Shown: one piece after another, positions 3,001 through 62,118 of the stretch
Numbering within the stretch: the stretch's first letter is position 1
Layout: the number at the start of each line of letters is the position of its first letter
Assembly (NCBI GenBank): GCA_964386355.1
Contig: CAYLQQ010000001.1
Location: 76,256-140,255 of the forward strand
DNA from: an uncultured Pseudomonadales bacterium
GTDB taxonomy: Bacteria; Patescibacteriota; Microgenomatia; UBA1400; UBA1449
Reading direction: 5' to 3'
Length of the DNA stretch: 64,000 nt
The notes under the pieces: generated by a model
What the model was told of the DNA's origin: nothing
The model's database searches: none
Seen by the model: the letters and a program-made list of their open reading frames with translations, nothing else
Translations under genes and position numbers: made by a program

Positions 3001-3449
3001 ACGTACCGGTGTTATATGCAAATACTGTACCGTTAAATGCTGTATCAACTAGTTTATTGTGCACCGCAACACCCTCGGCAAAGAAGGTTTTGTTTGAGTC
3101 AACTGAAATATTATAAACCTGGGTTGGTTTGAGAACTTTCTCTATAGATGTGACTATATCAGGGACAAGCGTTTTATCTTGCTGTATGTAGATCCGGTCG
3201 CCAATCAATATATTTTGTGCCTGGGTGAAGTTTGTATACTCTGATTCTACTTGTACCGAATTGGTTTGTGTGCGGTTTCCAATTAAACCAAGACCCACAA
3301 CAACAAACCCCGCAATGAATACTAAAGCGAGTATGATAAAACCTGGATTAACATGCGTACGGTTTTTATCCAACATAAGAGGTAGATTATGCTTGTTTGT
3401 TGAAGTTTGTCTCGTACTCATACTGGTCTTTTTGAGATTGGGTAGCATA
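1..3449 (-). CDS. Giant secreted Cys-rich surface protein, 5' partial (runs off window start); >1149 aa. N-terminal signal anchor, tandem ~47-aa Cys repeats (KCQYKYxCGG), PKD-like domain (WWDFETDGT), C-terminal domain paralogous to that of 6036..10823.
   Basis: Hand translation of the minus strand from ATG at 3449 stays open to position 1. The ORF track shows only short spurious plus-strand ORFs here. TM helix GFIILALVFIAGFVVVGLGLIG near the N-terminus. Motifs WWQIGSGNV and IQSILPSGESFITGGGAASWNEG match WWQVGIGNV and IQSIVPSGESLIESGGSATWNEG in the 1595-aa protein. Confidence 0.6.
1620..1870 (-). repeat. Intragenic tandem DNA repeat (2 near-identical ~140-bp units) encoding the repeated Cys module ...TDWT(F/L)S(A/V)(T/S)DTATKCQYKY(V/I)CGGT...
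   Basis: gtacttgtactggcatttagtggcagtatcag occurs at ~1651 and ~1783, with extended flanking similarity. Confidence 0.7.
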
Positions 3450-3572: not shown

Positions 3573-4232
3573 TTACCTCAACCCAATATCAATCTTAAAC
3601 TCTTTCCACCCATACTTCACATATGTCGTATAGCGATACCAAAGATTCTTAAGTTTTTGGGACATTGTTTTTGGAGGTTGGGGATTTGTACCGGTAAAAA
3701 TTGGGTGTTCCGCAGTAACGTTAATCTCTTTTCCTGAGGCAGTTTTGATAGTGAAGTATCCTTCGCTCGTAACAGAATATCGTTGTGTTACTGTATCAGC
3801 GCTTACTGAACCTGTTTTATCGTCAAAACTCATTACCTGATCTCCTATCTTTAATGCTTCAATCGCAAGCTCTCCACCCGGAGTTGCTACCTTGGTACCG
3901 GGGAGGAAACAACCACCGCCACAACAAGGAGCCCCTCCTGTATTAACATGCCAATAACGATATCTGCCCCAATGCCCTAACACGCCTCCTACAGAGCGTA
4001 GTTCACAAGGTCTATCCCAGAACATGTCTATGAGGGAATAAGCTGTCACTGACCCTGTGGGGTGTGCCATACAACCAGAATTATCATCTGCATAACACCT
4101 ATCTTCATCTGTAATTAGATTACATGTCTCTTGCGCATGTATAGCATGAACAAATTGATTGAAAAACCACAACCATAATATGACAATAAAACCAAAACGC
4201 AAACATTTACGTTTCATATTTATCAATATCAA
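3573..4232 (-). CDS. Secreted Hint/Hog-domain protein (Hedgehog/bacterial-intein-like autoprocessing domain). Signal peptide, ~80-aa 6-Cys N-terminal module, then a GGG|CFLPGTKV...TAEHPIFT Hint core.
   Basis: Hint motif A (G-CF-x-GT-x-V) and motif B (T-x-x-H-P-x-x-T) read directly. N-terminus MKRKCLRFGFIVILWLWFFNQFVHA is signal-like. The true start may be the M at 4217. Confidence 0.6.
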   Translation of the reverse strand: MILINMKRKCLRFGFIVILWLWFFNQFVHAIHAQETCNLITDEDRCYADDNSGCMAHPTGSVTAYSLIDMFWDRPCELRSVGGVLGHWGRYRYWHVNTGGAPCCGGGCFLPGTKVATPGGELAIEALKIGDQVMSFDDKTGSVSADTVTQRYSVTSEGYFTIKTASGKEINVTAEHPIFTGTNPQPPKTMSQKLKNLWYRYTTYVKYGWKEFKIDIGLR

Positions 4233-6035: not shown

Positions 6036-9000
6036 TTAGTGGTTGACTTCACTCCAGACATACTGGTAGATTTTGAAGGCTTTGAGGTCTGACTCGGTAG
6101 TCTTGAGCGTATAGATCATATCTGCGTTGTGTTCAAACTTTTCCGCCGGTGTCTGGTTGTCAGCTCCCTGCATATGCCTCCAGAGATTCACCCCTCTCCA
6201 GCCGATCAACCCACCACGGATAAGTAGACGGTTGGCATCAACATCATCTTTGTATGAGCTTGTTGTAATATACTCATCCGCAATATAAAAGCCATCAAGT
6301 TGTGCTACTCCATCGCTTATGTAGATATTACCCTTCTGCCCTCCCGTACTATCCTGATTTCCCGATATAAGGACAAAGATGCCTCCTTTGTCAGTTATGA
6401 TGTCACCTAAGATATCCACCCTACCGCGGTACAGGATCGCTATTTGGCGAGAACCCAAATTAGTTACGCCGCTCGTGCTCCCGATTACCAGGGGAAATTG
6501 GTCAGCTTCAATCTCATAGATCCCGTTTGGCCACGATGCGATGTTTGCAACATCAGCTTTACTTTTCCCATACGTCGTATAGTCAGCCAGTTTATCCTGC
6601 CAAAACGCATAATTATAGGTATCCTTTTTGACATAGGTTCCTGCCTGAGCCTCCAGAGCATAGTCACCAAAATCTCCTCCCTGATCTGCATTATAATCTA
6701 TACCACCCTCGTTCCAGGTGGCTGATCCACCAGATTCAATCAGGCTCTCACCGCTGGGAACAATGCTCTGTATAGCCCTTTCTGTGCCTCCTCCGTAGTT
6801 TGAGAATACATTTCCGATACCAACCTGCCACCAAGCATCAGGGTAATTACCGCCGATAAGTTCAGAGTGGCAATTGTTAAAATTATATTCCCCGATAATC
6901 CTCCTGGTCATATAAAGGCTCAGGCCAGCTGCATCAAAATGGCAAACTTGTGTTTCAGAAGGTAAGTTTGGGTTGCCTTCAACTAATAGTTCCGGATTAG
7001 AACCGCTGCAGGTAAACCTCCGGTATTTTGTTTCTGATACATCAGCGTAGCCGGCAGCACTAAAACCAGTCACCATATCAGGAAAGGCAAATGTGACATC
7101 CAATGGATAGGTTTGCTCGGGTGGGCTGTACGTTTCTTCAGTATCACTATAGGGTGCTTGGTAAAAAATAAAGTTACAATTCTCTCCGCATCCAGACGCT
7201 TGTGATTGGTTTTCGTACTGCATTTTTTTATCCTGTGTTGCATCAGTTGCTGTTGTTAACAAGGGTTTCATATAGTAATTACCACCAATCTGTATGACAG
7301 CTCCACATACATCAGTCCCGGCATAGCTGTTGCTTTGGATACTGACTGAATATGATGAGCCTCCATTTATTGAGGTAGAGAAATACCCTGTATTATCAGT
7401 AATGAGTGGGGTAATTTTTATTGTATCATCTACAAGTACTGTAATACCCTCTATTCCGGGACCATCAGAGGAGTTACTTCGCACATAACCAGCTACAATA
7501 TAGGGTGTGACAAAGCCGATATTACAATTGGAAACTACAGGTGAAGATCGATAAACTGTTCCGCTTGCATCAGAAAAGTGCAAATTAGCTGTCAAGGGAA
7601 TCGTATAGTTTTTGTTCTCATTATATGTATGTGTTGCAATAACACTATCCATGCTAGGAGGTGGCGATACAGTTTGTGTGTCTGACCCATCTCCAAAATC
7701 AAGAGTAAGCGAGTAAACCTGTTCCCTACCGTTGACAGCCGCATTCTTAAATGTCGCGGCAAAGGGGAATGTGCTTGGAGAGATTGATACAAAATCGTTT
7801 ATACGGCAACTCGATTTTGGTAATGGGTACATTTGGAAATCACAACTGCTTGTGGCACATCCTCCAACTTGCGTTTGGTTGACATAACTCAATTTTCTGT
7901 CCAGATACGTTAAAGGAGGAAACTGGTAGCCCGATATTGACTGGCTGGGAATCGTGATTGAATAGGTATCACCTTCACATAAATCCAAAACCGTAGAATA
8001 GTTACCGCCACTGTCAGTCTTTAAACTGTACGTTTGTCCAGTTTTATCATGCTTGACCACAACATTTACATCTTTAATTACTGGTTTTGTCCCGACTAGT
8101 AACCCCTCTATATCATACCGACTACGAATATTACCTTTGATTTGCGTTTTTTGACATATAGTACCGACAGTAACTGCAGTATCACAGGTAGCTTGCCTGC
8201 CCCCATCATCGCTAACTGTAAGCACAGCTGATTTAATTCCTGAAGTTGTGTAGCTCGTTGTTACACTTGCACTAGTAAGGCTGCTATACCCTGTTGCTGA
8301 ACTATCTAATAGCCAATTAAAGCGTACAGTTCCTATTCCTCCCTGAGCGTCTCCCTGATGCGTAAAAATGTCGCTTCCAGTATTACCGCTTGTGGGATTT
8401 GAGCTTGCGTTACATGTCAAATTTGGAACAGTATTTACTGTGACTGTCGTATCACAACTGGCTTTTTTACCAGAGCTGTCTTGAATATTTAGGATTGCTT
8501 TTTTAGAACCGCCAGTTGAGTATTTTGTAGCTACACTAGAACTAGTCAGCACTCCACTCTCCAGGGCTGAATTATCAAGTGTCCAACTATACGTCACTGC
8601 GCCAATTTGGCCCGAAACCTCACTCAGGTGAGTAAATATGGTGTTGTTTGGATCACCGCTTAGTGGATTTGATGAGGCTTTGCAAGTCAATACTGCACCA
8701 TCAATCACAGTAACTGTCGTATCACAAGTAGCTTGCCGACCCAAGCTATCCCTGACTGTAAGGATGGCTTTTTTTGACCCTGAAGTTGAGTACTTTGTGC
8801 TTACATTGGATCCAGTTAGCGATCCTGGTTCTAATGCTGAACTATCAAGCGTCCAGTTATAGCTTACTGAACCAGACTGTCCTTGAACAGTGCCCTGGTG
8901 TATAAAAATTGTACTACCTGTAGTGCCTTCGATTTGATCAGAGGTGGCTGTACACGTTAATGCAGTTGCATTACACGATGAGCGTACTTCATTACTTTTT

Positions 9001-10823
9001 GTCACAAACCGGCTACATTCACCGCTTTTACCGCACACCCAAACCTGATAGTCGTATTCCTGCCCAAGACTAATAGTGGTGTCCGTATAGGTTACTGTAC
9101 TGCCAACTGCTCCTGTATATGAAACCGGAGAAAGTGAAGTATATGTAGCTGATCCAGCATTTTTTCGGTATACAACATAGCCACCTTTAGCATCAGCAGT
9201 GTGTGTCCAAGTGATAGATATTCTACTTGGATTAGATGCATCCGCTAACAAACACACAGCTGAAATAGTTATCCCCCTGGGAAGAATATCAATATCTTTC
9301 TCACACTTTTGACCAAACCACGCACCGACTTTGGGACTTTCGACAAGTGACCGCCAATACAATTTATAGGTGTTCCCAACTGTAGCAACATCAGTTGGAG
9401 CCAACATACTTACATTCCACGATACCGGATTGCCCGGCGAAATTGTCTGTGATGAAGTAAGCTCACGCCGCATTCCAGGCGAAGGAGTAAAGCAAAACAT
9501 TTGTGGCTGGCTGGAAACCCAGACACTTCCTTGCCAGCCTCCTGGAGTCCAGCCATTTCCTGTATCGCATGAAGCATTGCCCAGCTTATATCCTAACGCA
9601 CTTGTCCAATTAGATGGATTTGGAGCTCCTGAGCCTCCCGTATTGGTCAGACCAAGCGTCCCCGAAAAAATAGAGCCAAGCGTTACACTTGATGGAATCC
9701 CTGAGGAGTTACAGGTTGAGTTATCTACATTAAAATTTTCGTGACAATTGTAGTTGTAAACGGAACTATCAGGATTTGTTCCGGATGTATTTACCCCATA
9801 TTGATCTTGACCATATGCAGCTATAAGCATTTTGTTATTATTGGTAAGTGCAAAATCATAACAAGCCTTCGGAATTTGCCCTGTATAGCTAATGGTAACT
9901 GACTTAGCATTTAAACCTGTATTCGCGCTGTCTGGTATCGGAGTAAAATTGGAAACTGATGTTTGGCAGGAGAATTCACCTGAAGTAATGTTTGCTGTTG
10001 TTGAACTAAGTTGTGCTGTAAGAGTAATGGTTTGATTTGGATCAGTCCATGTAGATGGGCTGATAGATATACTTGTGTCTGTCTGATCCTCACCCACACA
10101 TACCGGAGGAGTAAATGGTTTCTTACATGTGAGAGTAAAATTGTCGGGCCGATCAGAACCATCCCACCATTTGATTAAGGATGAAGTGCTATCAACCGTA
10201 CCTGAACTATTTATCCCTTTTACTTTTGCTGTAAAACTGTGGGCAACATCATCCTGATACGAAGATGGCAGTTGCACCCGAAAGCGGTGATTAGAGTATC
10301 CGCCACAGGATACTGGTGATTCAAAATTATCATCAGCCAACACAGTACTTATAAGCTTCGCCCCTTCATATATCTCTACGCTGAGTGGCTGACTGTATTT
10401 ATCAGGATCGCACGTCCAACCAGATACGGTACAGTTGTTGGGATCTGCTTGTACCTCAAAATGGGCATCATTTCTGCCAACAGGGTTTTGTCCAGATGGC
10501 AGGCCGCTACAGTTTAAAATACCACTTCCATCATATACTGTAGTACAGGTCTTTGTACCACTGCAGCTTGGGTCACATCCGCAACTTTTTACCTCACCAC
10601 AAGTTAATCCTTCAGCCGGACAGTAGGCAGATTCAGCTGATTTGATTCCGCAGTTACTACTTGTTGGACTTGTACCACAGTCACAGGTACATGAACATGA
10701 ATACGCATACACATCTTGAGGATTTAACAGTTTGAATGTAAATAAACTTCCAATAAGTAAAATAAAACAAATGTTATTGAGTATGAAGTGATAAATAGAT
10801 TTCAAAGAATACATAGTATGCAC
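6036..10823 (-). CDS. Giant (1595 aa) secreted Cys-rich surface protein with three tandem PKD/Ig-like repeats, a PKD domain (LDFGDGSD), a carboxypeptidase-regulatory-like fold, and a C-terminal ~300-aa domain shared with the 1..3449 protein
   Basis: Long ORF. Signal anchor ICFILLIGSLFTF. N-terminal Cys cluster CSCTCDCGTSP...; three repeats ending ...ATCDTTVTV. Confidence 0.7.
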   Translation of the reverse strand: MHTMYSLKSIYHFILNNICFILLIGSLFTFKLLNPQDVYAYSCSCTCDCGTSPTSSNCGIKSAESAYCPAEGLTCGEVKSCGCDPSCSGTKTCTTVYDGSGILNCSGLPSGQNPVGRNDAHFEVQADPNNCTVSGWTCDPDKYSQPLSVEIYEGAKLISTVLADDNFESPVSCGGYSNHRFRVQLPSSYQDDVAHSFTAKVKGINSSGTVDSTSSLIKWWDGSDRPDNFTLTCKKPFTPPVCVGEDQTDTSISISPSTWTDPNQTITLTAQLSSTTANITSGEFSCQTSVSNFTPIPDSANTGLNAKSVTISYTGQIPKACYDFALTNNNKMLIAAYGQDQYGVNTSGTNPDSSVYNYNCHENFNVDNSTCNSSGIPSSVTLGSIFSGTLGLTNTGGSGAPNPSNWTSALGYKLGNASCDTGNGWTPGGWQGSVWVSSQPQMFCFTPSPGMRRELTSSQTISPGNPVSWNVSMLAPTDVATVGNTYKLYWRSLVESPKVGAWFGQKCEKDIDILPRGITISAVCLLADASNPSRISITWTHTADAKGGYVVYRKNAGSATYTSLSPVSYTGAVGSTVTYTDTTISLGQEYDYQVWVCGKSGECSRFVTKSNEVRSSCNATALTCTATSDQIEGTTGSTIFIHQGTVQGQSGSVSYNWTLDSSALEPGSLTGSNVSTKYSTSGSKKAILTVRDSLGRQATCDTTVTVIDGAVLTCKASSNPLSGDPNNTIFTHLSEVSGQIGAVTYSWTLDNSALESGVLTSSSVATKYSTGGSKKAILNIQDSSGKKASCDTTVTVNTVPNLTCNASSNPTSGNTGSDIFTHQGDAQGGIGTVRFNWLLDSSATGYSSLTSASVTTSYTTSGIKSAVLTVSDDGGRQATCDTAVTVGTICQKTQIKGNIRSRYDIEGLLVGTKPVIKDVNVVVKHDKTGQTYSLKTDSGGNYSTVLDLCEGDTYSITIPSQSISGYQFPPLTYLDRKLSYVNQTQVGGCATSSCDFQMYPLPKSSCRINDFVSISPSTFPFAATFKNAAVNGREQVYSLTLDFGDGSDTQTVSPPPSMDSVIATHTYNENKNYTIPLTANLHFSDASGTVYRSSPVVSNCNIGFVTPYIVAGYVRSNSSDGPGIEGITVLVDDTIKITPLITDNTGYFSTSINGGSSYSVSIQSNSYAGTDVCGAVIQIGGNYYMKPLLTTATDATQDKKMQYENQSQASGCGENCNFIFYQAPYSDTEETYSPPEQTYPLDVTFAFPDMVTGFSAAGYADVSETKYRRFTCSGSNPELLVEGNPNLPSETQVCHFDAAGLSLYMTRRIIGEYNFNNCHSELIGGNYPDAWWQVGIGNVFSNYGGGTERAIQSIVPSGESLIESGGSATWNEGGIDYNADQGGDFGDYALEAQAGTYVKKDTYNYAFWQDKLADYTTYGKSKADVANIASWPNGIYEIEADQFPLVIGSTSGVTNLGSRQIAILYRGRVDILGDIITDKGGIFVLISGNQDSTGGQKGNIYISDGVAQLDGFYIADEYITTSSYKDDVDANRLLIRGGLIGWRGVNLWRHMQGADNQTPAEKFEHNADMIYTLKTTESDLKAFKIYQYVWSEVNH
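8150..8990 (-). repeat. Three tandem ~280-bp intragenic repeats encoding PKD/Ig-like modules
   Basis: Repeated DNA blocks (gtcgtatcacaa... units). Protein repeats ...STKYSTSGSKKAILTVRDSLGRQATCDTTVTV occur x3. Confidence 0.65.
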
Positions 10824-10887: not shown

Positions 10888-11982
10888 CTAGCGCAGTCCC
10901 CCAACAACCTTTACCTTTGCAAGTAGTTTTTCATCATCTAAAACCTTACCACACCCGCGGACTACGCAGGTTAGTGGATCATCAGCCACCCATACAGGCA
11001 TTTTAGTCTCTTCTGCCAGGAGCTTATCCAAACCTGGAAGTAATGCTCCTCCGCCAGCAAGCACAATACCATTTTTAATGATATCGGCAACAAGCTCAGG
11101 TGGCGTTTCTTCCAAGGTTTCTTGTGTTGCTGAGATAATCTGGCTAACTATCGGGGCAATGGCTTCACGGATTTCCTCGCTATTAACCTTTATAGAGGAA
11201 GGCAGGCCTTTTTCCATAGATCTACCTCGAACGACATGTTGTTTTTCTTTATCAAATGGATACGCCGAACCGATAGCAAGTTTCACTTCTTCAGCTGTAA
11301 GCAATCCGATGATAAGGCCATATTTTAAGCGCATGTAGGCAATAATTGCCTCATCAAACTCATCTCCAGCAGTTCTCAAACAACGCTCAACAACGATGCC
11401 TCCCAGAGAAATAATTGAAATTTCGGTTGTACCGCCACCAATATCAATAATCAGCTGGCCTTGCGGGTCTGTGACTGCAATACCTGCTCCAATTGCTGCA
11501 GCCATTGGCTCCTCAATCAAATAAGCCTGCCGAGCACCAGCCGAAAGCGCGGCTGACTGAACAGCTCTTCGTTCAACTTCTGTCACACCAGATGGAATAC
11601 CAATCACCACCCGAGGCCGAAGGACTTTTGGAAAAACTGAGGGTATCTCGTGGATCTTGCGGATATAGTTCCTGACCATGGCAGATGTTGCATCAAAATC
11701 TGAGATCACCCCATCCCGCAAAGGCCTAACTGCTTCAATAGTTTGAGGTGTTTTGCCAAGCATTTTTTTAGCTTCGCTACCTATTGCAATAACTTTACCC
11801 ACATTACTACCTTGAACATTTACCTTTTTTTGGCGGGCTACTACTGAGGGTTCACGTATCATGATCCCCCTGCCTTTAATGTACACAAGAGTATTTGAGG
11901 TACCTAGATCGATACCCAGATCGTATGTAAAAAAATCCCAGAGATTATGTGACAAGTGTTGGGTACAAGTGGCGGGTAACAA
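10888..11982 (-). CDS. mreB: Rod-shape-determining protein MreB (actin-like ATPase), paralog 1
   Basis: GIDLGTSNTLVY phosphate-1 motif; DIGGGTTE; MreB-like length and gestalt. Confidence 0.85.
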   Translation of the reverse strand: MLPATCTQHLSHNLWDFFTYDLGIDLGTSNTLVYIKGRGIMIREPSVVARQKKVNVQGSNVGKVIAIGSEAKKMLGKTPQTIEAVRPLRDGVISDFDATSAMVRNYIRKIHEIPSVFPKVLRPRVVIGIPSGVTEVERRAVQSAALSAGARQAYLIEEPMAAAIGAGIAVTDPQGQLIIDIGGGTTEISIISLGGIVVERCLRTAGDEFDEAIIAYMRLKYGLIIGLLTAEEVKLAIGSAYPFDKEKQHVVRGRSMEKGLPSSIKVNSEEIREAIAPIVSQIISATQETLEETPPELVADIIKNGIVLAGGGALLPGLDKLLAEETKMPVWVADDPLTCVVRGCGKVLDDEKLLAKVKVVGGLR

Positions 11983-47496: not shown

Positions 47497-48995
47497 GTCT
47501 CTATCCTTCCTATTTCTATTGTGCATATTCCAGCGAATTCTGTATTTATGTTCATTTTCCTTATCATTCTTTGATATATTTATTTACTCATTTTACGTTT
47601 CTTAGTATATTAAATTTTTTAATTAGAGGTATTGATACCCAGTAGCTTCTTACCACTCGTATTATCAGTTATTGCTTTCACTAGGCTCTTATGTCTTTCT
47701 TTATACTGTATTTATATGGTTTTCCTCATTAATATTATTTTATATGACTGTATTCTTACTATCATAATCTCAATATTTTTCCATAATTTCTTTACTATAT
47801 GAAATAAAAGATTCTAATATATGGTTCTTTTTAGTATGTATGATCTACTACCATGGTTTTAATGTGATGTATAACCTAAATAAATAAAGAACCTGTATTT
47901 TCTATTTATAAACGTATGTTTACATACCTTTATTTATTTTTTTGTATACCACCGTCTTCATAGGCATTGATTATGTAAAAGTCGTAATGTTTCACGAACT
48001 ATATATTTTCGTAATATTTCCTTAACTTTATATAGTTGAATTATATTTCTTATCTTCCACCACTTATTGTTCTTTGTCTGTTTTATTGTTGGTGTCTTAT
48101 TATTATTCCACATTTGCTATCATTTATATTATCAAAACATGCTCATATTTGCCAATTTCAATCTCATTCAAAATGACGTTATCTGATGTAACAATCAACA
48201 ATAACTATACTATGTCGTTTATTTTTTAATAGAAAATATAATAATTTATGTCTACTCATTTGTAGCTAGCACTATGTGTAACAGTTTGCTTTTGTTATGT
48301 ATTAGGTGCCATTCAATAATCCTCTATGTATTACTATTAGGATTACATTTTTAGATTAGTTATTATATTCTTACATTCGTTGTAGGTAGACCTAAGGGTA
48401 ATGTGTTAAATTTAAACCTAACGCGTTCTATAGAGGTATTAAAATGCTTTCAGTGACTAGCAAATCAAAGTAATATTTGCCAGCCTATGTAAGGTTATGG
48501 TTATAGATTGATTAAACAGTAATAATAGCATCATAACTAATTAGCACATAAATTCTCATGTATAAATAAAATTTATGAATAATTGGCTATTACTATCTAT
48601 GGATCTATATACACAGATAACGACTTAGAGATACATTAATATGTAATGTCATCAGTCGTAAAGAGGAATATTAATAACTGTTGGTGACGTATAACTGTGA
48701 CACCAGTATAAACAATACTAAACTTAATGAATTTAACTATTTATATTCTATTTATGGATTATCCAGTTGAAATAGATATAAAAAATTATGAAGAAGGTAT
48801 TAATGCACATTTATAAATAGACTATAGGAATAACTATCATATAGCATACCTTTTGAAGACAATTATTAGCCAATAATTATGCATTGACTATAATTAATCA
48901 AAAACTATTGACACGTAAATCATGATTATTACTATCAATGTATGAAGGTAGACTCTTGCAATTTCATATGTATATTGTATACTAAGCTGTTTCCA
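47497..48995. other. ~1.5-kb AT-rich (~25-30% GC) ORF-free spacer separating rplA from the rplJ leader
   Basis: No ORF of 60 aa or more in any frame. Base composition is sharply lower than the flanking genes. Confidence 0.6.
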
Positions 48996-48997
48996 TA

Positions 48998-49175
48998 GAC
49001 AGTGTGGCCGTGTCGAGTGATTTGCAAAATTCACACGACCATCTCAATCAAGTCACAAGACCTGATTGAGATGTGAAATCGACATGTAAGACCCACCGAG
49101 GAGCAAAACAAGTTGAGATATAGTCTTGTATTATGTTAGCTTGTTATATGCGCCTCTAGATAGGCGCTTTTTTAT
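48998..49175 (+). promoter_or_regulatory. Structured rplJ leader (long nested inverted repeats) ending in an attenuator-like hairpin plus T-run; candidate L10(L12)-binding autoregulatory leader
   Basis: CTCAATCA..TGATTGAG 8-bp stem; GTCGAGTGA..GAAATCGAC; terminator gcgcctctagataggcgctttttt at 49150..49175, ~115 nt before the rplJ ATG. Confidence 0.4.
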
Positions 49176-49289
49176 TTTTAAATATAGAAAATAAAGTTAG
49201 TGAATGTAAAAATACTTCGTTACAGGCTCTGTATATATAGTCAGAGATAATAAGGATAGAGGTAACTTACATCTATTAACCAATCCGCT

Positions 49290-49802
49290 ATGCCAAGTAA
49301 AAAGAACATTGTAGATCTTACAGACTTACAGACAAAACGAGATAACTCTAAAGCAGTTGTTTTTGCCCATTACCACGGCTTAAAATCTAACCAAATCAAT
49401 CAGCTGCGCGATAAAGTACGCGATGCAGGTGGTGAGATGGTTGTAGCTAAAAACACACTACTCCGCATTGCCTTTGGTAAATCAGACGAAATAAACTCAA
49501 CCCTAACTGGACCGACTGCTGCCATATTTGCATATGAAGACGAGATTGCACCCTTGAAAGTAGTGTCAGAATTTGCAAAAGAAAACGAATTACCTAAGTT
49601 AACTGCTGGCTTTTTTAATAATCAGGTTATCAACGCTGATCAGGTTACCAAGCTTTCAGCACTACCTGGAAAAAAAGAGCTCAGAGGTCAGGTGGTTGGT
49701 ACATTGTCAGCACCTTTGTATGGGTTAGTGAATGTCATGCAGGGAAATCTTAGAAACTTGGTATACGCTCTTAAGGCAATTGGTGACAAAAAGTCCGAAT
49801 AA
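49290..49802 (+). CDS. rplJ: 50S ribosomal protein L10
   Basis: L10 gestalt (KAVVFAHYHGLKSNQINQLRDKVRDAGGEMVVAKNTLL); precedes rplL. Confidence 0.9.
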   Translation: MPSKKNIVDLTDLQTKRDNSKAVVFAHYHGLKSNQINQLRDKVRDAGGEMVVAKNTLLRIAFGKSDEINSTLTGPTAAIFAYEDEIAPLKVVSEFAKENELPKLTAGFFNNQVINADQVTKLSALPGKKELRGQVVGTLSAPLYGLVNVMQGNLRNLVYALKAIGDKKSE

Positions 49803-49930
49803 ACATTATTAACAGAGGTAACATTAATCTTAGGCTTAGTAAGCGATTATAAACACAGTTCATAACAAGTAACTACATCTTTTGTTATTTGTTTACTGAA
49901 TTTTGAACAATTTAAAGGAGGTGAGCAATC

Positions 49931-50338
49931 ATGGCAGACGAACAAGTAAAAGTAAGTGAAAAACTTACAAAAATCATGGAGTCAATCGAAACATTAACTG
50001 TTTTGGAACTCGCAGATCTGGTTAAAGCATTGGAAGACAAATTTGGTGTCAGTGCTGCCGCCCCAGTTGCCGTGGCTGCCGCCCCGGTCGCAGGTGCCGC
50101 CAGTGCTGCTCCAGTTGAAGAAAAAACAGAGTTTGACGTCATCCTGACTGCTGCTGGTGCTAATAAAATTGGCGTCATTAAAGCAGTTCGTACACTCAAA
50201 CCTGATCTTGGTTTGAAAGAAGCTAAGGACTTAGTCGAAGGCGCTCCCAAACCAGTGTTGGAAGCTGCTAAGAAAGAAGATGCTGAAAAAGCAAAAGCTA
50301 TCTTAGTTGAAGCCGGCGCACAAGTCGAGCTTAAATAA
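49931..50338 (+). CDS. rplL: 50S ribosomal protein L7/L12
   Basis: Ala-rich hinge; C-terminal [52 protein letters not shown]. Confidence 0.95.
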
Positions 50339-50830
50339 GCTTTAGATTTGCTATAAACCTAAAACCTTGGGAGCAATCTCAAGGTTTTTTGTAGAGTAAC
50401 TGCTTGACCTGTAAGTCCAGTCGAGTAAGACCGCATAGTTAGATTAAAATAGAAATATAACTTGTGGCCCTAAAAAGGTAAAAGTTATAGACTGGGCGCA
50501 CAAGTCGAATTGAAATAATTCGACCTGTAAGTACTGAGTAGCGCAAGCTACTCATGTAAGCGCAAGTTGAGTTGAAGTAATATTCTCTCATATGCAAAGA
50601 CAAAACCCTAGGTATCCCCTAGGGTTTTTTGTAAGGATGCCTATACTCAACTGGCCATCCCATCAAAGCATTAATTAATAAACAAAAATACGTGTGGAAT
50701 TCAACTTACGACCCTAATATGATATAAAGCTACCGATGGGGCGCGCAAGTTGAACTTAAGTTAGCTTTAGATTTGCTATAAACCTAAAACCTCTGGACTT
50801 TCAGTTTCGGGGTTTTTTGTTGGCAATAAA
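50320..50830 (+). repeat. Three degenerate copies of the rplL 3' end (GAQVELK-stop) each followed by a hairpin terminator; mosaic repeats
   Basis: ggcgcacaagtcgagcttaaataa (50320), gggcgcacaagtcgaattgaaataa (50495), gggcgcgcaagttgaacttaagttag (50742). Shared agctttagatttgctataaacctaaaacc at 50344 and 50768. Terminators ccttggg..ctcaaggtttttt and ccctagg..cctagggtttttt. Confidence 0.7.
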
Positions 50831-51077
50831 GTTCTTTATTTATCATTACCATTTCTGAATAACATCAGGAACGGGTAATTATTTTGAAAAAATACTATAA
50901 TTGTAGTCTTCTAGCTATACCTGTTATGTAAAGCATGCTACATGCATAGGATCCCTCATTCTTGATTCCCATTCAGAAAAGGAGATAGCAAACAGAAAGC
51001 CATACTTGACACACTACACATCTTTTTGTTATTTTGAGTAGTAGTAATGTAGTATTTGTATCACAAGGAGGTACTCT

Positions 51078-51320
51078 ATGATGGATCTTAATATATCAAA
51101 CAATAAACTTAGTGATAAAAAAAGGGTAAAGATGGATGATCTACCTGACCTTCTCACCGTTAAAGAAGTAGCAGAACTTCTCAGGGTTGCTCCGCTCACC
51201 ATAAAACGCTGGGGTAAAAGAGGCAAGCTCCCTCCTATCCGTATCAATGCCCGAGGTGATCGTCGCTATAAAAAAGAGTCAGTACTATGGCTTCTGGGTA
51301 TCACGCCGAAAGAGAATTAG
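51078..51320 (+). CDS. Excisionase-family (MerR-like HTH_17) DNA-binding protein, orphan
   Basis: LLTVKEVAELLRVAPLTIKRWGKRGKLPPIRI..RGDRRYKKESVLWL is the classic Xis/HTH_17 pattern. Strong RBS AAGGAGG. Confidence 0.6.
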   Translation: MMDLNISNNKLSDKKRVKMDDLPDLLTVKEVAELLRVAPLTIKRWGKRGKLPPIRINARGDRRYKKESVLWLLGITPKEN

Positions 51321-52051
51321 TTCTTAGTTCTTAGTATTCTCCACACAAACTCTACTAATTTGAGTTGACGCTTCCAACGTGATGGTTCTTGGATTAGGCG
51401 GTATAGCCACTCCAAGTTTAGCTTTTGCAACCACAATGGCGGCCGACTTAAATTGCCCGCATAAACATCAAACGCTCCACCAACTCCTATTGCCAATCTT
51501 ACATGTGGCATTTTATTGAGATACTTTGATATAAATAGTTCTTGTTTTGGAGCACCCAAAGCTACAAAGAGTATCTCCACTTTCTCATCCTGTATTTTTT
51601 GGACAATCTCTGTATCCGCTTTACCATATTCATAGTATGGCAAAGCAATAATATCTACATTTGGAATCAGTTTGCGAAGTCTGTCAGCAGCTTTTGAAGC
51701 TACCCCATCAAGACCACCTAACAAACCTACTTTCATATGTGCGCCATACGTTTTACAAAGATACAGCATCAAGTCTATACCTGTTACGCGCTCTATTGGT
51801 CTGAATACGCCCTGTTTGGCTAGGATTCTTTTTGCTGCCCAAACCAAACCTATCCCGTCAGGTACGTTAAGGTCGGTATGTTGTAGAACAGTAAAATAAT
51901 TGTGTTGCTTTTGAGCGAGTATGATGTGTTCAGGATTGGGGGTAGCAATAAATACCTGTTTTTTTTCTTCAAGCAAGCGCAAAACGGCACTATCAATGCT
52001 TTTCCAGGTAACACAATCTATTGGTATTCCTAACACAGTAATCTTATCCAT
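51317..52051 (-). CDS. WecB/TagA/CpsF family glycosyltransferase (N-acetylmannosaminyltransferase-like)
   Basis: TPNPEHI, VPDGIGLVWA, GAPKQE, GVGGAFD, LEWLYRLIQEPSRWKR. Start at MDKITVLGIPID. Confidence 0.8.
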   Translation of the reverse strand: MDKITVLGIPIDCVTWKSIDSAVLRLLEEKKQVFIATPNPEHIILAQKQHNYFTVLQHTDLNVPDGIGLVWAAKRILAKQGVFRPIERVTGIDLMLYLCKTYGAHMKVGLLGGLDGVASKAADRLRKLIPNVDIIALPYYEYGKADTEIVQKIQDEKVEILFVALGAPKQELFISKYLNKMPHVRLAIGVGGAFDVYAGNLSRPPLWLQKLNLEWLYRLIQEPSRWKRQLKLVEFVWRILRTKN

Positions 52052-52931: not shown

Positions 52932-53939
52932 TTATCTCCTCGATAAACTCTTTTTATACATATCCAAGTGTTCTAAAACCACACCTGTTCCTTTGGCAAC
53001 GCAGAAAAGCGCATCTTCAGCTACATAACAGGGAATTCCCGTCTCTTGGGATAAGAGAGAGTCAAAATTTGCCAACATGCTTGTCCCCCCTGTCATAACT
53101 AATCCCTTATCAATAATATCTGAAGCAAGTTCCGGGGGAACTTCCTCAAGAACTTTCTTTACCATTGTTACTATTTGAGAAAGTGGATGGCTAAACGCTT
53201 CAACAACATCATTGCTGCTTATCTGGAGGCGCTTAGGTAAGCCGGATACTACATCCCTACCTTTAACCATCATTGTTTTTTCCTGTTTCAATTTCAGGGC
53301 TGAACCGATACGTAATTTAACTTCTTCTGCAGTTGTTTCTCCAATGATCAGACCATAACGCTTGCGTACCCATGCTATAAGGCCATCATCAAGCCTGCTT
53401 CCTGCTACACGCACTGAGCGATGAACAACTACTCCTCCTAGAGAAATGACTGCAGATTCTGCTGCTCCACCACCAATATCTAAAACCATATTTCCTGAAG
53501 GTTCGCCAATGGGTACCCCTGCGCCTATAGCAGCAGCTAATGGCTCCTGAATAATGTAAACCGATGATGCCCCGGCAGCTATGGTGGCATCCTCTACAGA
53601 CCGTTTCTCAACTTGTGTTGCTCCAGCAGGTATGCAAATGAGCACCTCAGGTCTAAAAAACATAGATCGCCCTACTGCTTTTTGGATAAAGTAACGCAGC
53701 ATTGCCTCAGTTATAGAGTAATCGGCAATGACTCCATCGCGCATCGGACGCTTTGCAAGAATATTTCCCGGTGTTCTACCGAGCATTTCTTTAGCTTCAT
53801 GACCAACTGCAACCACTTTCTTATCGTATACAGACACAGCTACAACTGTCGGTTCATTGAGGACAATACCTTTACCCGCCACATATACAAGCGAATTTGC
53901 AGTTCCTAAATCGATGCCAATACGAGAGCGAAAAGACAT
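52932..53939 (-). CDS. mreB: Rod-shape-determining protein MreB, paralog 2
   Basis: IGIDLGTANSLVYV, DIGGGAAE. Start at MSFRSRIGIDLG. Confidence 0.85.
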   Translation of the reverse strand: MSFRSRIGIDLGTANSLVYVAGKGIVLNEPTVVAVSVYDKKVVAVGHEAKEMLGRTPGNILAKRPMRDGVIADYSITEAMLRYFIQKAVGRSMFFRPEVLICIPAGATQVEKRSVEDATIAAGASSVYIIQEPLAAAIGAGVPIGEPSGNMVLDIGGGAAESAVISLGGVVVHRSVRVAGSRLDDGLIAWVRKRYGLIIGETTAEEVKLRIGSALKLKQEKTMMVKGRDVVSGLPKRLQISSNDVVEAFSHPLSQIVTMVKKVLEEVPPELASDIIDKGLVMTGGTSMLANFDSLLSQETGIPCYVAEDALFCVAKGTGVVLEHLDMYKKSLSRR

Positions 53940-54183
53940 TATAAATGTACCAATTTCCAATGATCAATTTATAATTAGCCCTTAAATATGCTATTTTAAA
54001 AATAAATATAAGCCTCACGAACTACATTGAGAATTGGTTTTGTAAATTATGTTTTTCCTATACAAACCCATCTTTAGGCATTATAATCTACCCATATCGG
54101 GAAAACAAAACAAAATGGAATAGTTTTCTCTCTCTGTTCACTACGGAAACTATACTATAATAATTTTAAATATAAATTAAAAC

Positions 54184-60042: not shown

Positions 60043-62118
60043 TTAATTATCATCAGGCCTGCTCAGCAGAACCTCACGGACGATTGAGTAGTCCAATAAA
60101 TTGACCACTCCATCATAGTTCACATCAGCAATATTAAGCTTGGATGCTTCGGGAGCTGTCAAAGAGGTGATATTGTTGAATATGGCTGAAAGATCATATT
60201 CGTTAGCCAAACCATCCTGAGCTGTCTGATTCCATGGCAGATCTCCGGGCATAAGCGGATAGGCAGTAAGGTCAATATTTGTGTTTGTACCTGGAATACT
60301 ATTCACCCTTCTTCTCAGGTGTTTTGGACCTTTGATACGAATAGCCAAATCTCCAGTATAATTTCCCAGGTCAAAAACAATAGGACCTGCAGTAAAGGTT
60401 CCACTAGTTACCGTTCCGCTGCGGAATACACCATTTGTATCAGATTCAAATGTTACAGTTTTTGTTTGTAAAGGAGTATTCCCACCGGAAGGAAGAACAT
60501 CAACTACAGCCTGAATAGACACACCCGGCTTGCTAACTTTGTAGAGCTTTGCCTTGATATTCAATCCTTGGGATGGGTCAGGATCGGTGCTAGACGTTAC
60601 TTGAATGGAATTTACGTAGCTGCAAGCACCACTAACAGATCCAAGTGTTGTAAGAATACGGTACTTAGGAGTAAATGTACCTGTTTGAGTGTATGTATGC
60701 GTAATATATCCATTGGGGGATGGATCAAAATAATCAGTATCCCAAGTCCCATCACCCTCAAAATCAACCTGGTACCCTTGTATTCCGCCTGTACCATCCA
60801 CTCCTCCACCAACATAGATGTATGCAGAAAGTGGCGCCGCACCGACAACTGTTTCCCGGTACTCATATTCTCCTTTGGAAATATAAATATTAGCTGAGCA
60901 TCTTGGAACTGAATTTACACATCTTCCATCTACACACCCTTGTCCGGTACCACAGGTAACGTTGCTACATGCATCACTTGTTTTACATGTCTTTGAAGTA
61001 GCATCCCAGCACCCGTTAGGACAGTCACAGCTCGTAGTAAACGCTTGGGTGCATGCTGATCCCCTATTGCAGAGATCTGCACAGCCATCACTAAACTCTC
61101 TCCAAGTTCCACCTGCAGCAGCACATGCTTGCTGTTCACTAGGGTTGGTATCACCAACATATTCAATTTGGCCAGTACCTACAGGCATGCTTGGATTGGA
61201 AACCTTACTGATTAGTTTAATAGAAAAAAGGTCAATGTTACCTGAAACTACAGTTATATCTCCACCCTGGACCATGGGAATGTAAGCTACTGAGGCAAAG
61301 CCTTCACTGGTATTGATAGTCTGTACGGGATTGAAACCGTGCGAAGCCTGCCGTAACCCATAGGTCTGGTCAAAGGTGTACTTGGCTGGGTCCCAGCTGA
61401 TTTTAGCAGCTATGGTTTGTGCCTTGCCTGCTGTGCTGCTCATTTTCATGGTGACCACCGTGCTGGCATTGGCTGCTATGCTTGTAGCTGTAGGATTTGT
61501 GGAAATTGAAAAGGCAGAAGACTGCTCACAATCCACTGCACAGCTGGTAGCTGTCTCTCCACTCTCACAAACGTTGTTGCCACAGCTTGAGCTAGCTACA
61601 AAGCCATCATAGGTCCCTGTTGCAGCAGGGGTTGTGGGGTTAGCTACTTTGGCAGTCAGCTTAATGGTAAACAGGTCTACATTTCCTCCAGGCAGAGTTA
61701 TATCTCCACCCTGGACCATGGGAATGTAAGCTACTGAGGCAAAGCCTTCACTGGTATTGATAGTCTGTACGGGATTGAAACCGTGCGAAGCCTGCCGTAA
61801 CCCATAGGTCTGGTCAAAGGTGTACTTGGCTGGGTCCCAGCTGATTTTAGCAGCTATGGTTTGCACTGTACCAACACCACTAGACATTTTCATATTGACC
61901 ACAGTACTAGCGTTAGCTGATAGAGTAGTTGCCGAGGGGTTAGACGAGAGAGAGAAAGTAGGCTCACCAGTGGTCCCTCCGACAAATATATCGGGTTGAG
62001 TTTGCTGCTTATGCTGAATAAGATACTGTATTACCAGAGATAAGGGAGCTAAAATCATAATCGCAACTGCGATTATGATTTTAGAATTTACTTGAGTGGT
62101 TTTGGGTGTCTGTTTCAT
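60043..62118 (-). CDS. Secreted surface protein with two near-identical cohesin-like modules, Cys-rich CExGET..C..DC linker, beta-sandwich region and C-terminal dockerin-like Ca-binding loop
   Basis: Signal anchor; repeats ...KISWDPAKYTFDQTYGLRQASHGFNPVQTINTSEGFASVAYIPMVQGGDIT... x2. C-terminal DVNYDGVVNLLDYSIV (D-x-N-x-D-G-x-x-N-x-x-D). Confidence 0.65.
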   Translation of the reverse strand: MKQTPKTTQVNSKIIIAVAIMILAPLSLVIQYLIQHKQQTQPDIFVGGTTGEPTFSLSSNPSATTLSANASTVVNMKMSSGVGTVQTIAAKISWDPAKYTFDQTYGLRQASHGFNPVQTINTSEGFASVAYIPMVQGGDITLPGGNVDLFTIKLTAKVANPTTPAATGTYDGFVASSSCGNNVCESGETATSCAVDCEQSSAFSISTNPTATSIAANASTVVTMKMSSTAGKAQTIAAKISWDPAKYTFDQTYGLRQASHGFNPVQTINTSEGFASVAYIPMVQGGDITVVSGNIDLFSIKLISKVSNPSMPVGTGQIEYVGDTNPSEQQACAAAGGTWREFSDGCADLCNRGSACTQAFTTSCDCPNGCWDATSKTCKTSDACSNVTCGTGQGCVDGRCVNSVPRCSANIYISKGEYEYRETVVGAAPLSAYIYVGGGVDGTGGIQGYQVDFEGDGTWDTDYFDPSPNGYITHTYTQTGTFTPKYRILTTLGSVSGACSYVNSIQVTSSTDPDPSQGLNIKAKLYKVSKPGVSIQAVVDVLPSGGNTPLQTKTVTFESDTNGVFRSGTVTSGTFTAGPIVFDLGNYTGDLAIRIKGPKHLRRRVNSIPGTNTNIDLTAYPLMPGDLPWNQTAQDGLANEYDLSAIFNNITSLTAPEASKLNIADVNYDGVVNLLDYSIVREVLLSRPDDN
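61254..61869 (-). repeat. Recent intragenic duplication: ~165-bp identical blocks at ~61254..61419 and ~61706..61869 encoding the cohesin-like module core
   Basis: atatctccaccctggaccatgggaatgtaagctactgaggcaaagccttcactgg...cagctatggtttg is identical in both places. Confidence 0.8.

Follow-up and report, generated by a model that had tools for sequence, protein, structure and literature searches.

In a 64,000-nt stretch of a Patescibacteria/Microgenomates genome (the window), the last 18-24 nt of rplL, coding for AQVELK and the stop codon, are present four times: once as the functional end of the gene and three more times downstream as fossil copies. Of about 32 related lineages, about 6 have similar arrays, and near-identical strains differ in theirs. 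We give a probability of about 0.5 to the explanation that these are allelic rplL ends, stacked by homology-anchored, out-of-register recombination with diverged relatives. Under this explanation, the array would have no dedicated function beyond supplying three tandem terminators ahead of the HTH gene that follows it. The features of the region are these:

49931..50338, + strand: rplL (L7/L12, 135 aa), from Pfam Ribosomal_L12 and L12_N.
50315-50338, + strand: A1, the functional end, last 24 nt of rplL, GGCGCACAAGTCGAGCTTAAATAA, reference copy of the 24-nt repeat family.
50321..50350, + strand: predicted stop-codon-spanning hairpin, CAAGTCGAGCTT (last rplL codons) pairing with AAGCTTTAGATTTG (start of box B1); RNA fold -9.7 kcal/mol, z -2.7.
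50339..50392, + strand: box B1 (50339-50367) and intrinsic terminator T1 (50361-50392; stem 50361-50388, then a U-run); T1 fold -16.4 kcal/mol, z -4.2.
50393..50494, + strand: spacer C, containing GACCTGTAAGT at 50406-50416, from the repeat search.
50495..50518, + strand: fossil A2, GGCGCACAAGTCGAATTGAAATAA, GAQVELK-stop, from the repeat search, the codon-pattern search and the match to L087.
50500..50558, + strand: D module, made of hairpin 1 (50500-50528), motif CCTGTAAGT and hairpin 2 (50532-50558, GCAA loop); fold -30.7 kcal/mol, z -4.8.
50560..50580, + strand: fossil A3, GCGCAAGTTGAGTTGAAGTAA, AQVELK-stop, from the repeat and codon-pattern searches.
50581..50739, + strand: spacer E with intrinsic terminator T3 (50600-50633); T3 fold -15.8 kcal/mol.
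50740..50763, + strand: fossil A4, GGCGCGCAAGTTGAACTTAAGTTA, GAQVELK with the stop mutated to TTA, from the repeat and codon-pattern searches.
50764..50820, + strand: box B4 and intrinsic terminator T4 (50786-50818), from the terminator scan; fold -13.3 kcal/mol.
51006..51035, + strand: predicted sigma-70-type promoter of the HTH gene (TTGACA, 18 nt, TG, TATTTT), from the promoter scan.
51078..51320, + strand: gene for a predicted 80-aa BldC-like MerR/HTH_17 DNA-binding protein, from domain matches and synteny.

The degenerate codon pattern GCNCARGTNGARYTNAAR has exactly four matches in the 64 kb, at 50318 (functional), 50498, 50560 and 50743, compared with 0.00 expected in shuffled sequence, and the repeat search places the 24-nt family at 50315, 50495, 50557 and 50740, with spacings of 180, 62 and 183 nt. 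All 12 nucleotide differences from the functional copy are synonymous and no indels are found (P about 1.5e-8 under random substitution), so each copy was formerly the working end of an rplL allele. Homology between copies stops at the stop codon. The identical blocks that they share are short, 14 nt between A1 and A2 and 11 nt between A3 and A4; the longest identical run between A2 and A3 is 5 nt, and the L087 pair shares no identical core. Decay grows with distance from rplL: the fourth copy of the window has lost its stop codon (TAA to TTA), indels are present in copy 3 of L171, and the sequence GQVELK without a stop is found in the distal copy of L087 and in the middle copy of L171. A4 is the oldest and most decayed fossil of the array. 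In spacer C, two heavily decayed end copies are also possible, GTAGAGTAA at 50391-50399 and CAGTCGAGTAA at 50418-50428, both recognised by inspection only.

The segments between copies are about 38-159 nt long (156, 41 and 159 nt), contain no ORFs and consist of terminators and hairpins. Canonical intrinsic terminators, with a GC-rich stem-loop and a U-run, are located downstream of copies 1, 3 and 4 (T1, T3 and T4), and the two hairpins after copy 2 lack a U-run; in the first of them the A2 codons pair with AATTCGACCTGT. Blocks are also repeated between the segments: the 29 nt at 50339-50367 are 100% identical to those at 50764-50792, GACCTGTAAGT is present at both 50406 and 50522, and A4 with B4 forms a 58-nt unit 88% identical to A1 with B1. 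Furthermore, units K1 (50339-50518) and K3 (50581-50763) are homologous, spacers C and E are homologous in their 3' parts (local alignment p = 0.023), and, in general, the cassettes of one array are homologous to each other (within-array p 0.000-0.023). The similarity of the A1+B1 and A4+B4 units, this within-array homology and a B-like box found after the single rplL end of L088 together indicate that the inserted units are rplL 3' flanks and not element DNA. The original prediction had described an rplL end recurring twice more, each copy with its own terminator, and mosaic blocks shared among them. The repeats are real, although the extra copies are three and not two; the terminators were three-quarters right, failing for copy 2; and the mosaic blocks exist, at coordinates that differ by up to 6 nt from those first given.

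Comparison with relatives provides the allelic counterparts of these fossils. A2 has the same sequence as the working rplL end of L087, where homology begins exactly at GGGCGCAC, and copy 2 together with the D module matches the native L087 end at 56 of 62 nt (90%), the first 36 being identical. Between the window and L087, identity is 81% for rplL, 73% for rplJ and 75% for the HTH gene, so that the non-coding D unit is more conserved than the genes flanking it. Spacer E is homologous to the stretch downstream of the second copy of L087. In L171, copy 3, located downstream of the D module, equals the functional end of L171 itself, though the D module is common to several lineages.

Strain comparisons show the arrays changing by recombination. 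A BLAST comparison of the window with L003 gives 0 differences in rplJ, 8 in rplL from position 50008 on, then a divergent array, and again 0 differences after 50785; this is the pattern of a recombination tract, with divergence bounded by identical flanks and one boundary inside a conserved gene. L194 and L196 are identical until 37 nt before the rplL end, where 9 synonymous changes begin, and fossil 2 of L194 with its flank is a 79% homologue of the functional end and flank of L196. In the group L181-L186, rplJ and rplL are mosaic and L185 carries a hybrid gene end. L181 has an extra 161-nt unit flanked by a 29-nt repeat, and its junction (GGGGGGCG|AAGAAAAAACTT) lies 45-48 nt before the stop, with only GCG shared, and is out of register with an older junction. 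No other junction is so clearly illegitimate, and exchange in register within the A box would explain the rest equally well. Left junctions cluster, most of them lying 19-24 nt ahead of the last base of the stop codon, and one at 48 nt is common to two independent lineages (L147 and L181). The left crossovers of the array tracts are variable. Among these comparisons there is no duplication-creating event with both parents known. Taken together, the strain comparisons favour homologous plus illegitimate recombination over site-specific excision. A scan of genome contigs with L7/L12 returned distant phyla only (67% identity or less), which were used as a background set.

We suggest that the resident rplL end would have been replaced several times by an allelic end together with its 3' flank, the incoming flank consisting of box B, a terminator and a stop-codon hairpin in some cases and of the double-hairpin D module in others. 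Diverged relatives would be the donors, and the exchange would be anchored by homology inside the conserved rplL gene. The distal join would be made out of register, at short homology within the final 20-50 nt of the resident rplL, close to the base of the stop-codon hairpin, so that the previous end and its terminator would survive each event as non-coding DNA a short way downstream. With two copies in place, recombination between them, or with donors that already bear an array, could add, remove and shuffle units. As to the enzymology, we infer a RecA-type exchange combined with a join that is illegitimate or unequal, possibly following DNA uptake; the hairpin may also act as a hotspot for breaks or template switching.

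Homology-anchored recombination with one illegitimate end exists, and the same type of experiment yields partial duplications of the anchor locus (PMC3240628); tandem duplications can also arise by transformation (PMC3784515). Homology-facilitated illegitimate recombination resembles the present case in that a conserved gene anchors one end and the other end is joined over short homology or none, and the divergence tracts of the window, bounded by identical flanks, fit this scheme; it differs in that those are laboratory events at arbitrary loci of model bacteria, whereas ours are deduced from sequences (PMC3240628; PMC3784515). If stacking of allelic ends is the correct explanation, fossil-end ladders would be a readable record of repeated allelic exchange at a conserved ribosomal operon boundary, direct sequence evidence of rplL-locus exchange between diverged lineages, and a usable strain-typing marker. 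To our knowledge, Patescibacteria are not culturable and their recombination biology is known by inference only, and we know of no description of a natural recurrent stack of ends at one gene.

Other observations count against stacking by general recombination. Such recombination should leave scars at other operon-terminal conserved genes too, and the phenomenon is strongly biased toward rplL: only one other duplicated end, at an ABC transporter (L135), was found among the about 2,570 open frames of the fetched loci, a biased sample in which every locus had been fetched through rplL or the HTH gene. The clustered left junctions look more site-specific than random illegitimate joining would.

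The bias toward rplL and the clustering of junctions would be expected if the copies were decayed att scars. Small elements carrying a tyrosine or serine integrase would have entered an attB site formed by the last ~20 nt of rplL repeatedly, each bringing a substitute end, and their bodies would later have been deleted, leaving CIME-like remnants, flanked by att sites and lacking recombination genes. This is the main rival explanation, which we consider unlikely; it has precedents. In Streptococcus, integrases are proven to target the 3' end of rplL, an observation that counts against the recombination explanation, and the att repeats of the ICESa2603/89K family resemble the array in gene and position, in comprising exactly the last 15-24 nt including the stop, and in preserving the frame (PMC4735348, PMC4701971). 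At the cryptic prophage e14 of E. coli K-12, incoming DNA likewise gives the housekeeping gene icd a substitute 3' end while the old end stays downstream as the pseudogene fragment icdC, and excision of e14 alters icd mostly synonymously (PMC13626634, citing Hill et al. 1989). The identical blocks of A1/A2 and A3/A4 may count for this explanation, copy 2 and the next 12 nt have an 11+6+11 inverted-repeat layout resembling a recombinase core site, and repeats of the gene 3' end, as expected of an integrative element, are present in four copies. If integrases were responsible, integration at the rplL 3' end, known in Streptococcus, would also occur in a phylum very distant from it.

The array differs from these precedents in several respects. 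Unlike the ICESa2603/89K elements (PMC4735348, PMC4701971), it contains no integrase, excisionase, conjugation genes or cargo, and its repeats vary at synonymous sites where theirs are identical cores. Between the ends of icd and icdC lies a 15-kb prophage with its own integrase, and a single fossil is left there, compared with three fossils within 450 nt and no element here (PMC13626634). The scan of 47 window ORFs revealed no domain of an integrase, recombinase or transposase, which agrees with the original prediction of no integrase nearby; among the 57 ORFs that reach 120 aa, 54 were covered, as scanned or as overlapping antisense frames. Serial integration at tRNA and tmRNA genes leaves a ladder of 3' fragments with the youngest nearest the gene. 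Such ladders resemble ours in recording serial events at one conserved gene end, but there they delimit integrase-carrying islands, while here the target is protein-coding and the 'islands' are empty: no element cargo was found in any of the three inter-copy segments. The comparison with strains that had been proposed in search of an element after rplL gave no integrase, and no other recombinase, among the variable genes in about 32 related rplL-HTH spacers, the genes present there being of toxin-antitoxin, kinase-like, HD and glycosidase types. Scans of viral contigs for GAQVELK-stop, for the D motif and for box B gave 0 matches each.

The repeats themselves also argue against att scars. The DNA between copies is only 38-159 nt long and homologous to native rplL flanks, and native-type flanks are two (B1/T1 and B4/T4) where one is expected. 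A2 and A3 have no identical core above 5 nt, the junction in L181 does not keep the register of an older one, the arrays travel as ordinary recombination tracts with variable left crossovers, and the covariation of the inverted repeat fits nucleic-acid pairing rather than protein binding. The claim that the region carries footprints of integration and excision at a conserved gene end can be kept only in part: repeated insertion or replacement is supported by the synonymous-only variation, the decay gradient and the difference in copy number between near-identical strains, but a site-specific excisable element is not. Duplicated gene ends alone should not be taken as proof of an integrated element.

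The gene supposed to encode the excisionase of such an element is a core gene. Its protein had been predicted as an 80-aa Xis/HTH_17 protein with a strong ribosome-binding site, and both the AAGGAGG site and the Pfam HTH_17 match are present (41 bits, cut-off 27). The Xis identity is not supported: MerR_1 scores higher than HTH_17, the match to TIGR01764 'excise' reaches 28.7 bits with a cut-off of 28.8, the top NCBIfam family is HTH_BldC (44.7 bits, below its 77-bit cut-off), and Xis-type HTH_17 domains are related at the fold or family level only. The best PDB matches, 6AMA and 6AMK ('Putative DNA-binding protein'; E about 1e-8, residues 19-78), are what we take to be BldC-DNA complexes. BldC is a 68-residue MerR-like developmental regulator of Streptomyces (PMC5859096). 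The HTH protein is equally minimal, with a MerR-type HTH and no dimerisation or effector domains, but it comes from another phylum, and its HTH_BldC score is below cut-off. It has 5,545 homologues, the top ones 70-89% identical and found in Microgenomates.

Nor is the gene an orphan excisionase linked to the repeats, as had been proposed. The order rplJ-rplL-HTH-WecG-HD-mreB is kept in every syntenic relative examined (L084-L090, L171-L178, L181-L186), and the HTH gene directly follows rplL also where only one rplL end is present, as in L084 and L088. Upstream of it, TTGACA and TGTTAT motifs are conserved in L087, L084, L088, L171 and L182. Judged from its sequence and surroundings, the gene is a conserved core BldC-like MerR-type regulator, predicted to be independently transcribed and not to be part of the array. 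According to the original prediction, a MerR-type regulator conserved in all relatives, with the repeats absent from them, would speak against an integration scar; the gene is conserved, but repeats are still present in some of the relatives. 'Excisionase-family' HTH genes in these genomes should be annotated with caution, since they are usually core BldC-like regulators. Binding of the direct repeats by the BldC-like protein was rejected on the 62-183-nt spacing, on the distance of about 270 nt from the nearest copy to the promoter, and because repeat-free relatives keep the gene.

Another unlikely possibility is that the last ~20 nt of rplL and the stop-codon hairpin form a dedicated recombination joint, on which a recombinase that acts on hairpin DNA, encoded by the host or not yet recognised, would stack, exchange and spread small non-coding cassettes (the D unit and the terminator units). 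This would amount to an element-free 'mini-cassette platform' in candidate-phyla bacteria. In a weaker version, the D unit may be a new structured RNA or a mobile mini-element specific to the rplL 3' end.

The structure of the D module also argues for a selected 3'-UTR or insulator, in which the hairpins and three tandem terminators would be kept for 3'-end formation or stability of the rplJL mRNA, or for shielding of the HTH promoter, and the rplL-like boxes would be retained parts of the RNA. Hairpins 1 and 2 fold far better than shuffles (z -4.0 to -4.9) and covary in five sequences from four lineages (window, L087, L171, L194 and L003), with 82% of cells paired compared with 25-40% when the partner is slid, and 5 pairs changed on both sides. 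In unrelated phyla, too, the last rplL codons frequently form a hairpin with the sequence that follows (for example 16-bp stems in L066 and L024), and the 90% conservation of the D unit between the window and L087, above that of the flanking genes, points the same way. We nevertheless find this explanation improbable. RNA structure accounts for the hairpins but not for the extra ends, whose period-3, synonymous-only pattern is a coding signature; distal copies decay by stop loss and indels; many relatives manage with one end and one terminator (L084, L088, L192); and near-identical strains differ in copy number. Rfam 15 covariance models gave no match at E <= 1 within 50300-51100, and the sole Rfam match was a weak L10 leader upstream of rplJ.

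In-situ tandem duplication of a ~180-nt unit (end, terminator and spacer) by slippage, followed by divergence within the lineage, would explain the 180/62/183-nt spacing and the homology of K1 and K3, but is very improbable. Neutral fossils formed in place should change at all codon positions, in contrast with the 12 of 12 synonymous differences and the lack of indels; copy 2 and the D module are 90% identical to the functional end of another lineage; and the divergence between units (about 65%) is far above that between strains differing in copy number.

An assembly artefact that strung together the rplL ends of different strains can practically be set aside, even though the sources are metagenome assemblies of mixed strains and chimeric L7/L12 proteins with internal duplications occur in public protein sets (P0125, P0132). 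The 739-nt spacer of the window is reproduced exactly in the independent Logan assembly L001, and related arrays were recovered from 8 and 5 samples assembled independently, the L171 type being identical in 8 samples and the L182 type in 4 of the 6 contigs examined; the array is thus not an artefact of assembly. Furthermore, at 14 nt or less the blocks common to copies fall below the k-mer length of assemblers, and chimeras are not expected to give a decay gradient or hairpin covariation.

Several other candidates were rejected. Translation of the fossils as mini-ORFs is suggested by ATG-TGC-AQVELK-stop in L087, but no start codon is conserved elsewhere. A longer decayed rplL copy upstream of each fossil (-50 to -24) is suggested by eye, with a shared 7-nt gap, yet p ranges from 0.015 to 0.68, and for a conserved 'element right end' upstream of the fossils the similarity across lineages is weak (best p = 0.028, uncorrected for multiple tests). 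A MITE or insertion sequence that duplicated its target site would give copies that start identical, with the non-functional one decaying at all codon positions. A diversity-generating retroelement, with its template/variable repeat pair, does not fit: the changes are not specific to adenines, no reverse transcriptase is present, and the target does not belong to the variable proteins. Integron attC-like sites (RYYYAAC / GTTRRRY, around 50701 and 50748) were discarded because the functional copy and copy 2 do not fit GTTRRRY and the 'cassettes' are gene-free; GTTRRRY does fit some of the rplL-end copies.

The rplL gene lies in a region where nusG, rplK and rplA are present and are followed by a 1.8-kb AT-rich gap before rplJ. 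The features from rplJ onwards are as follows.

Features of the rplJ-HTH region (window positions)
49290-49802: rplJ
49931-50338: rplL
Between rplL and the HTH gene, 739 nt: rplL-HTH spacer
51078-51320: HTH gene, 80 aa
Beyond the HTH gene, opposite strand: genes for a WecG-family glycosyltransferase, an HD-domain protein and MreB

The named best matches of both L7/L12 and the HTH protein are from Candidatus Beckwithbacteria, Microgenomates and the Patescibacteria group. The rplA-rplJ gap (47500-49290) is devoid of ORFs, and about 1.5 kb of it has 26% GC against about 40% in the flanks; its sole RNA match, to the L10 leader at 48975-49182, stays below threshold (30.3 bits; gathering score 44). 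The same spacer is very variable in length in relatives, from about 300 to 1,640 nt.

The last 18-24 nt of rplL are present three extra times inside the rplL-HTH spacer. A degenerate codon pattern for AQVELK matches at 50318, 50498, 50560 and 50743 only in the 64 kb (0.00 expected), and these four copies, of which copy 1 is the functional end, form a 24-nt repeat family with steps of 180, 62 and 183 nt. The repeats noticed in the original prediction are real, with three extra copies instead of two and with corrected coordinates; its further statement, that each copy carries its own terminator, holds for copies 1, 3 and 4, which are followed by canonical intrinsic terminators, and fails for copy 2, whose two downstream hairpins lack a U-run. 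Copies 1 and 4 have a 58-nt unit in common, containing a 29-nt block (box B) identical at 50339-50367 and 50764-50792. The entire spacer is identical base for base in an independent assembly (L001), and rplL is the sole gene with such end copies among the 81-127 open frames of the window.

The three extra copies show 12 nucleotide differences from the functional end in total; every one is synonymous, and all four copies translate to AQVELK. The synonymous share of single substitutions in these codons is 22%, and the chance of an all-synonymous pattern is about 1.5e-8. A 48-nt second copy in the related locus L147 has nine differences, every one at a third codon position, and synonymous-type variation of the extra ends is likewise found in L021, L095, L087 and L194. 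A plain duplication whose copies then diverged neutrally where they lie could not yield this pattern; every copy must once have been the end of a working rplL allele that was later displaced. Decay is greater with distance from the gene: copy 4 of the window lacks a stop codon, copy 3 of L171 has indels, and in the third copy of L087 and the second of L171 Ala is changed to Gly and the stop is gone.

The units between copies are rplL 3' flanks belonging to two allele classes. The first is made up of a gene end with box B and a terminator; RNA folding pairs box B with the last rplL codons in a hairpin spanning the stop codon, and a B-like box follows the single rplL end of L088. In the second class (D) the gene end comes with hairpin 1, the CCTG(A/T)AAGT motif and hairpin 2, where the QVEL codons pair in hairpin 1 with sequence beginning inside the stop codon. 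The D module follows the native end in L087 and a fossil end in the window, L171 and L194, is partial in L003, and runs into another gene-end copy in every case. Both D hairpins covary, one pair of hairpin 1 being seen as C-G, A-U, G-C and U-G, and 82% of cells are paired, against 25-40% with partners slid by one to three columns. Copy 2 of the window and its D module are 90% identical to the functional end and D module of L087, a homology that starts exactly at GGGCGCAC, whereas the flanking genes are just 73-81% identical. Stop-codon-spanning hairpins at rplL seem widespread. Since similar hairpins between the last codons and downstream sequence, with stems of at most 16 bp, occur at rplL in Alphaproteobacteria and other groups, those described here are probably an RNA-level feature of the rplL 3' end and not recombinase sites. 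At four Alphaproteobacteria-type loci (L066, L024, L052 and L075) the last rplL codons and the stop lie in 10-16-bp hairpins with adjoining downstream DNA, an example being GGAATTGAAGTAA...TTATTTCAATTCC.

Of the lineages that have the HTH gene adjacent to rplL (about 32), six have extra rplL ends (the window and L003; L087; L171-L178; L095 and L181-L186; L147; L194), as does one of 80 species representatives, mostly of other phyla (L021). Across lineages the rplL-HTH spacer ranges from 15 to 1,875 nt, and in some of them it is occupied by small genes of no relation, coding for a toxin-antitoxin pair (MazE/PIN), a kinase-like ATPase, a glycosidase-like protein and an HD protein. In L162 (1317-1640), rplL is truncated near residue 119 (...PKPVLEGVT-stop) and an unrelated 244-aa minus-strand ORF follows directly, which could reflect a disrupted gene end or an assembly join. 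Two public L7/L12 entries of 198-216 aa (P0125 and P0132), with most of the protein duplicated internally, are probably strain-mixture assembly chimeras.

Three strain-level comparisons show recombination tracts. L003, from another sample, matches the window at 100% identity in rplJ and the HTH gene, and carries only two copies, in a spacer of 443 nt; rplL has eight differences, from 50008 on, the array is strongly divergent, and no difference is found between 50785 and the contig end. L194 and L196 are identical until 37 nt before the rplL end, after which L194 has nine synonymous changes, a new end and two fossils, the second of which, with its flank, is a 79% homologue of the functional end and flank of L196. 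The L181-L186 group has mosaic rplJ and rplL, with a hybrid gene end in L185 and, in L181, an additional unit of 161 nt that brings a new end, ATVELK, and has a 29-nt repeat on its flanks; the L181 junction, 45-48 nt before the stop, is out of register with an older junction (about 21 nt) and has only GCG in common with its target. Although D is shared between lineages, the copy 3' of it matches the host lineage's own allele (exactly in L171 but for two indels and the stop), and therefore the gene-end box behaves like the joint where exchanges resolve.

The reading that we favour, with a probability of about 0.5, is that recombination with diverged alleles has serially displaced the rplL end. 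Exchange would be anchored by homology within rplL, with an unequal or illegitimate distal join in the final 20-50 nt of the resident rplL, where the stop-codon hairpin has its foot, and units would afterwards be gained, lost and shuffled by copy-to-copy recombination; the enzymology, and any role of DNA uptake, we infer. Homology-anchored recombination with one illegitimate end is documented, and the experiments concerned also yielded partial duplications of that locus (PMC3240628); tandem duplications generated by transformation are documented too (PMC3784515).

The main rival, decayed att scars of integrase-driven elements, we consider unlikely. The exact 3' end of rplL is the att site of ICESa2603-family elements in Streptococcus (PMC4735348, PMC4701971), where that end is likewise repeated, and e14 leaves a comparable displaced end in icd (PMC13626634). 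Junctions are also clustered, and the bias to rplL is strong, the only other duplicated gene end in about 2,570 open frames scanned being that of an ABC-transporter gene in L135. However, unlike those elements, neither recombinase nor cargo was found anywhere examined: no integrase, recombinase or transposase domain occurs in the 47 window ORFs scanned, as the original prediction had remarked of integrases nearby, and no recombinase gene in the rplL-HTH spacers of the roughly 32 lineages. Moreover, the array has two native-type flanks, no core is shared by copies 2 and 3, the L181 junction falls out of register, and arrays move as tracts with variable crossovers. The integration footprint of the original prediction is apt only if taken broadly, as repeated replacement at a gene end. 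A selected RNA function of the array would account for the hairpins but leaves the coding-type variation of the extra ends unexplained. The array most likely consists of displaced gene-end fossils and recombination scars, both of known kinds, here in an uncultured phylum; the probability that it involves a dedicated recombination joint associated with hairpins, or a new structured element, is low. The L135 case (2760-3260, minus strand) is a duplication, with synonymous differences, of the last ~30 nt of the gene (FWNLQIKLD-stop), on either side of an inserted 120-aa ORF without a Pfam match.

The HTH gene had been taken for an element's excisionase, which is contradicted by its conserved synteny. 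Its product matches MerR_1, HTH_17 and MerR; the top NCBIfam model is HTH_BldC (44.7 bits, under the 77-bit cut-off), and the 'excise' domain model scores just under its own threshold. The nearest solved structures, 6AMA and 6AMK (E about 1e-8), deposited as 'Putative DNA-binding protein', we take to be BldC-DNA complexes. There are 5,545 homologues, the top ones 70-89% identical and spread across Microgenomates, and the order rplJ-rplL-HTH-WecG-(HD)-mreB is kept in every relative with fetched context and intact synteny, also where rplL has one end only (L084 and L088, for example); L179 has a more distant homologue at a different site, yet in chromosomal context. In the window and relatives alike, the gene has a TTGACA/TGTTAT promoter and an AAGGAGG ribosome-binding site upstream of it.

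The promoter-like block ACTACA..TCTTTTGTTATTT, whose exact core is 11 nt long, is common to 49868-49892 (5' of rplL) and 51008-51036 (5' of the HTH gene); its presence upstream of both genes suggests that rplL has its own promoter within the rplJ-rplL spacer. A 7-nt microsatellite, TTAGTTC, lies exactly where the HTH and convergent WecG genes end (51317-51335), and is length-variable, since the sister strain L003 has at least four copies (3243-3274) against 2.7 in the window. A 24-nt exact repeat (61262-61285 and 61706-61729, 444 nt apart) within the gene for a 691-aa dockerin-like surface protein (60043-62118, minus strand) is probably part of a repeated protein domain. Two MreB paralogues lie within 42 kb (10888-11982 and 52932-53960), and genes for a Hint-domain protein (3573-4232) and a 1,595-aa PKD-repeat protein (6036-10823) are found close to the window start.
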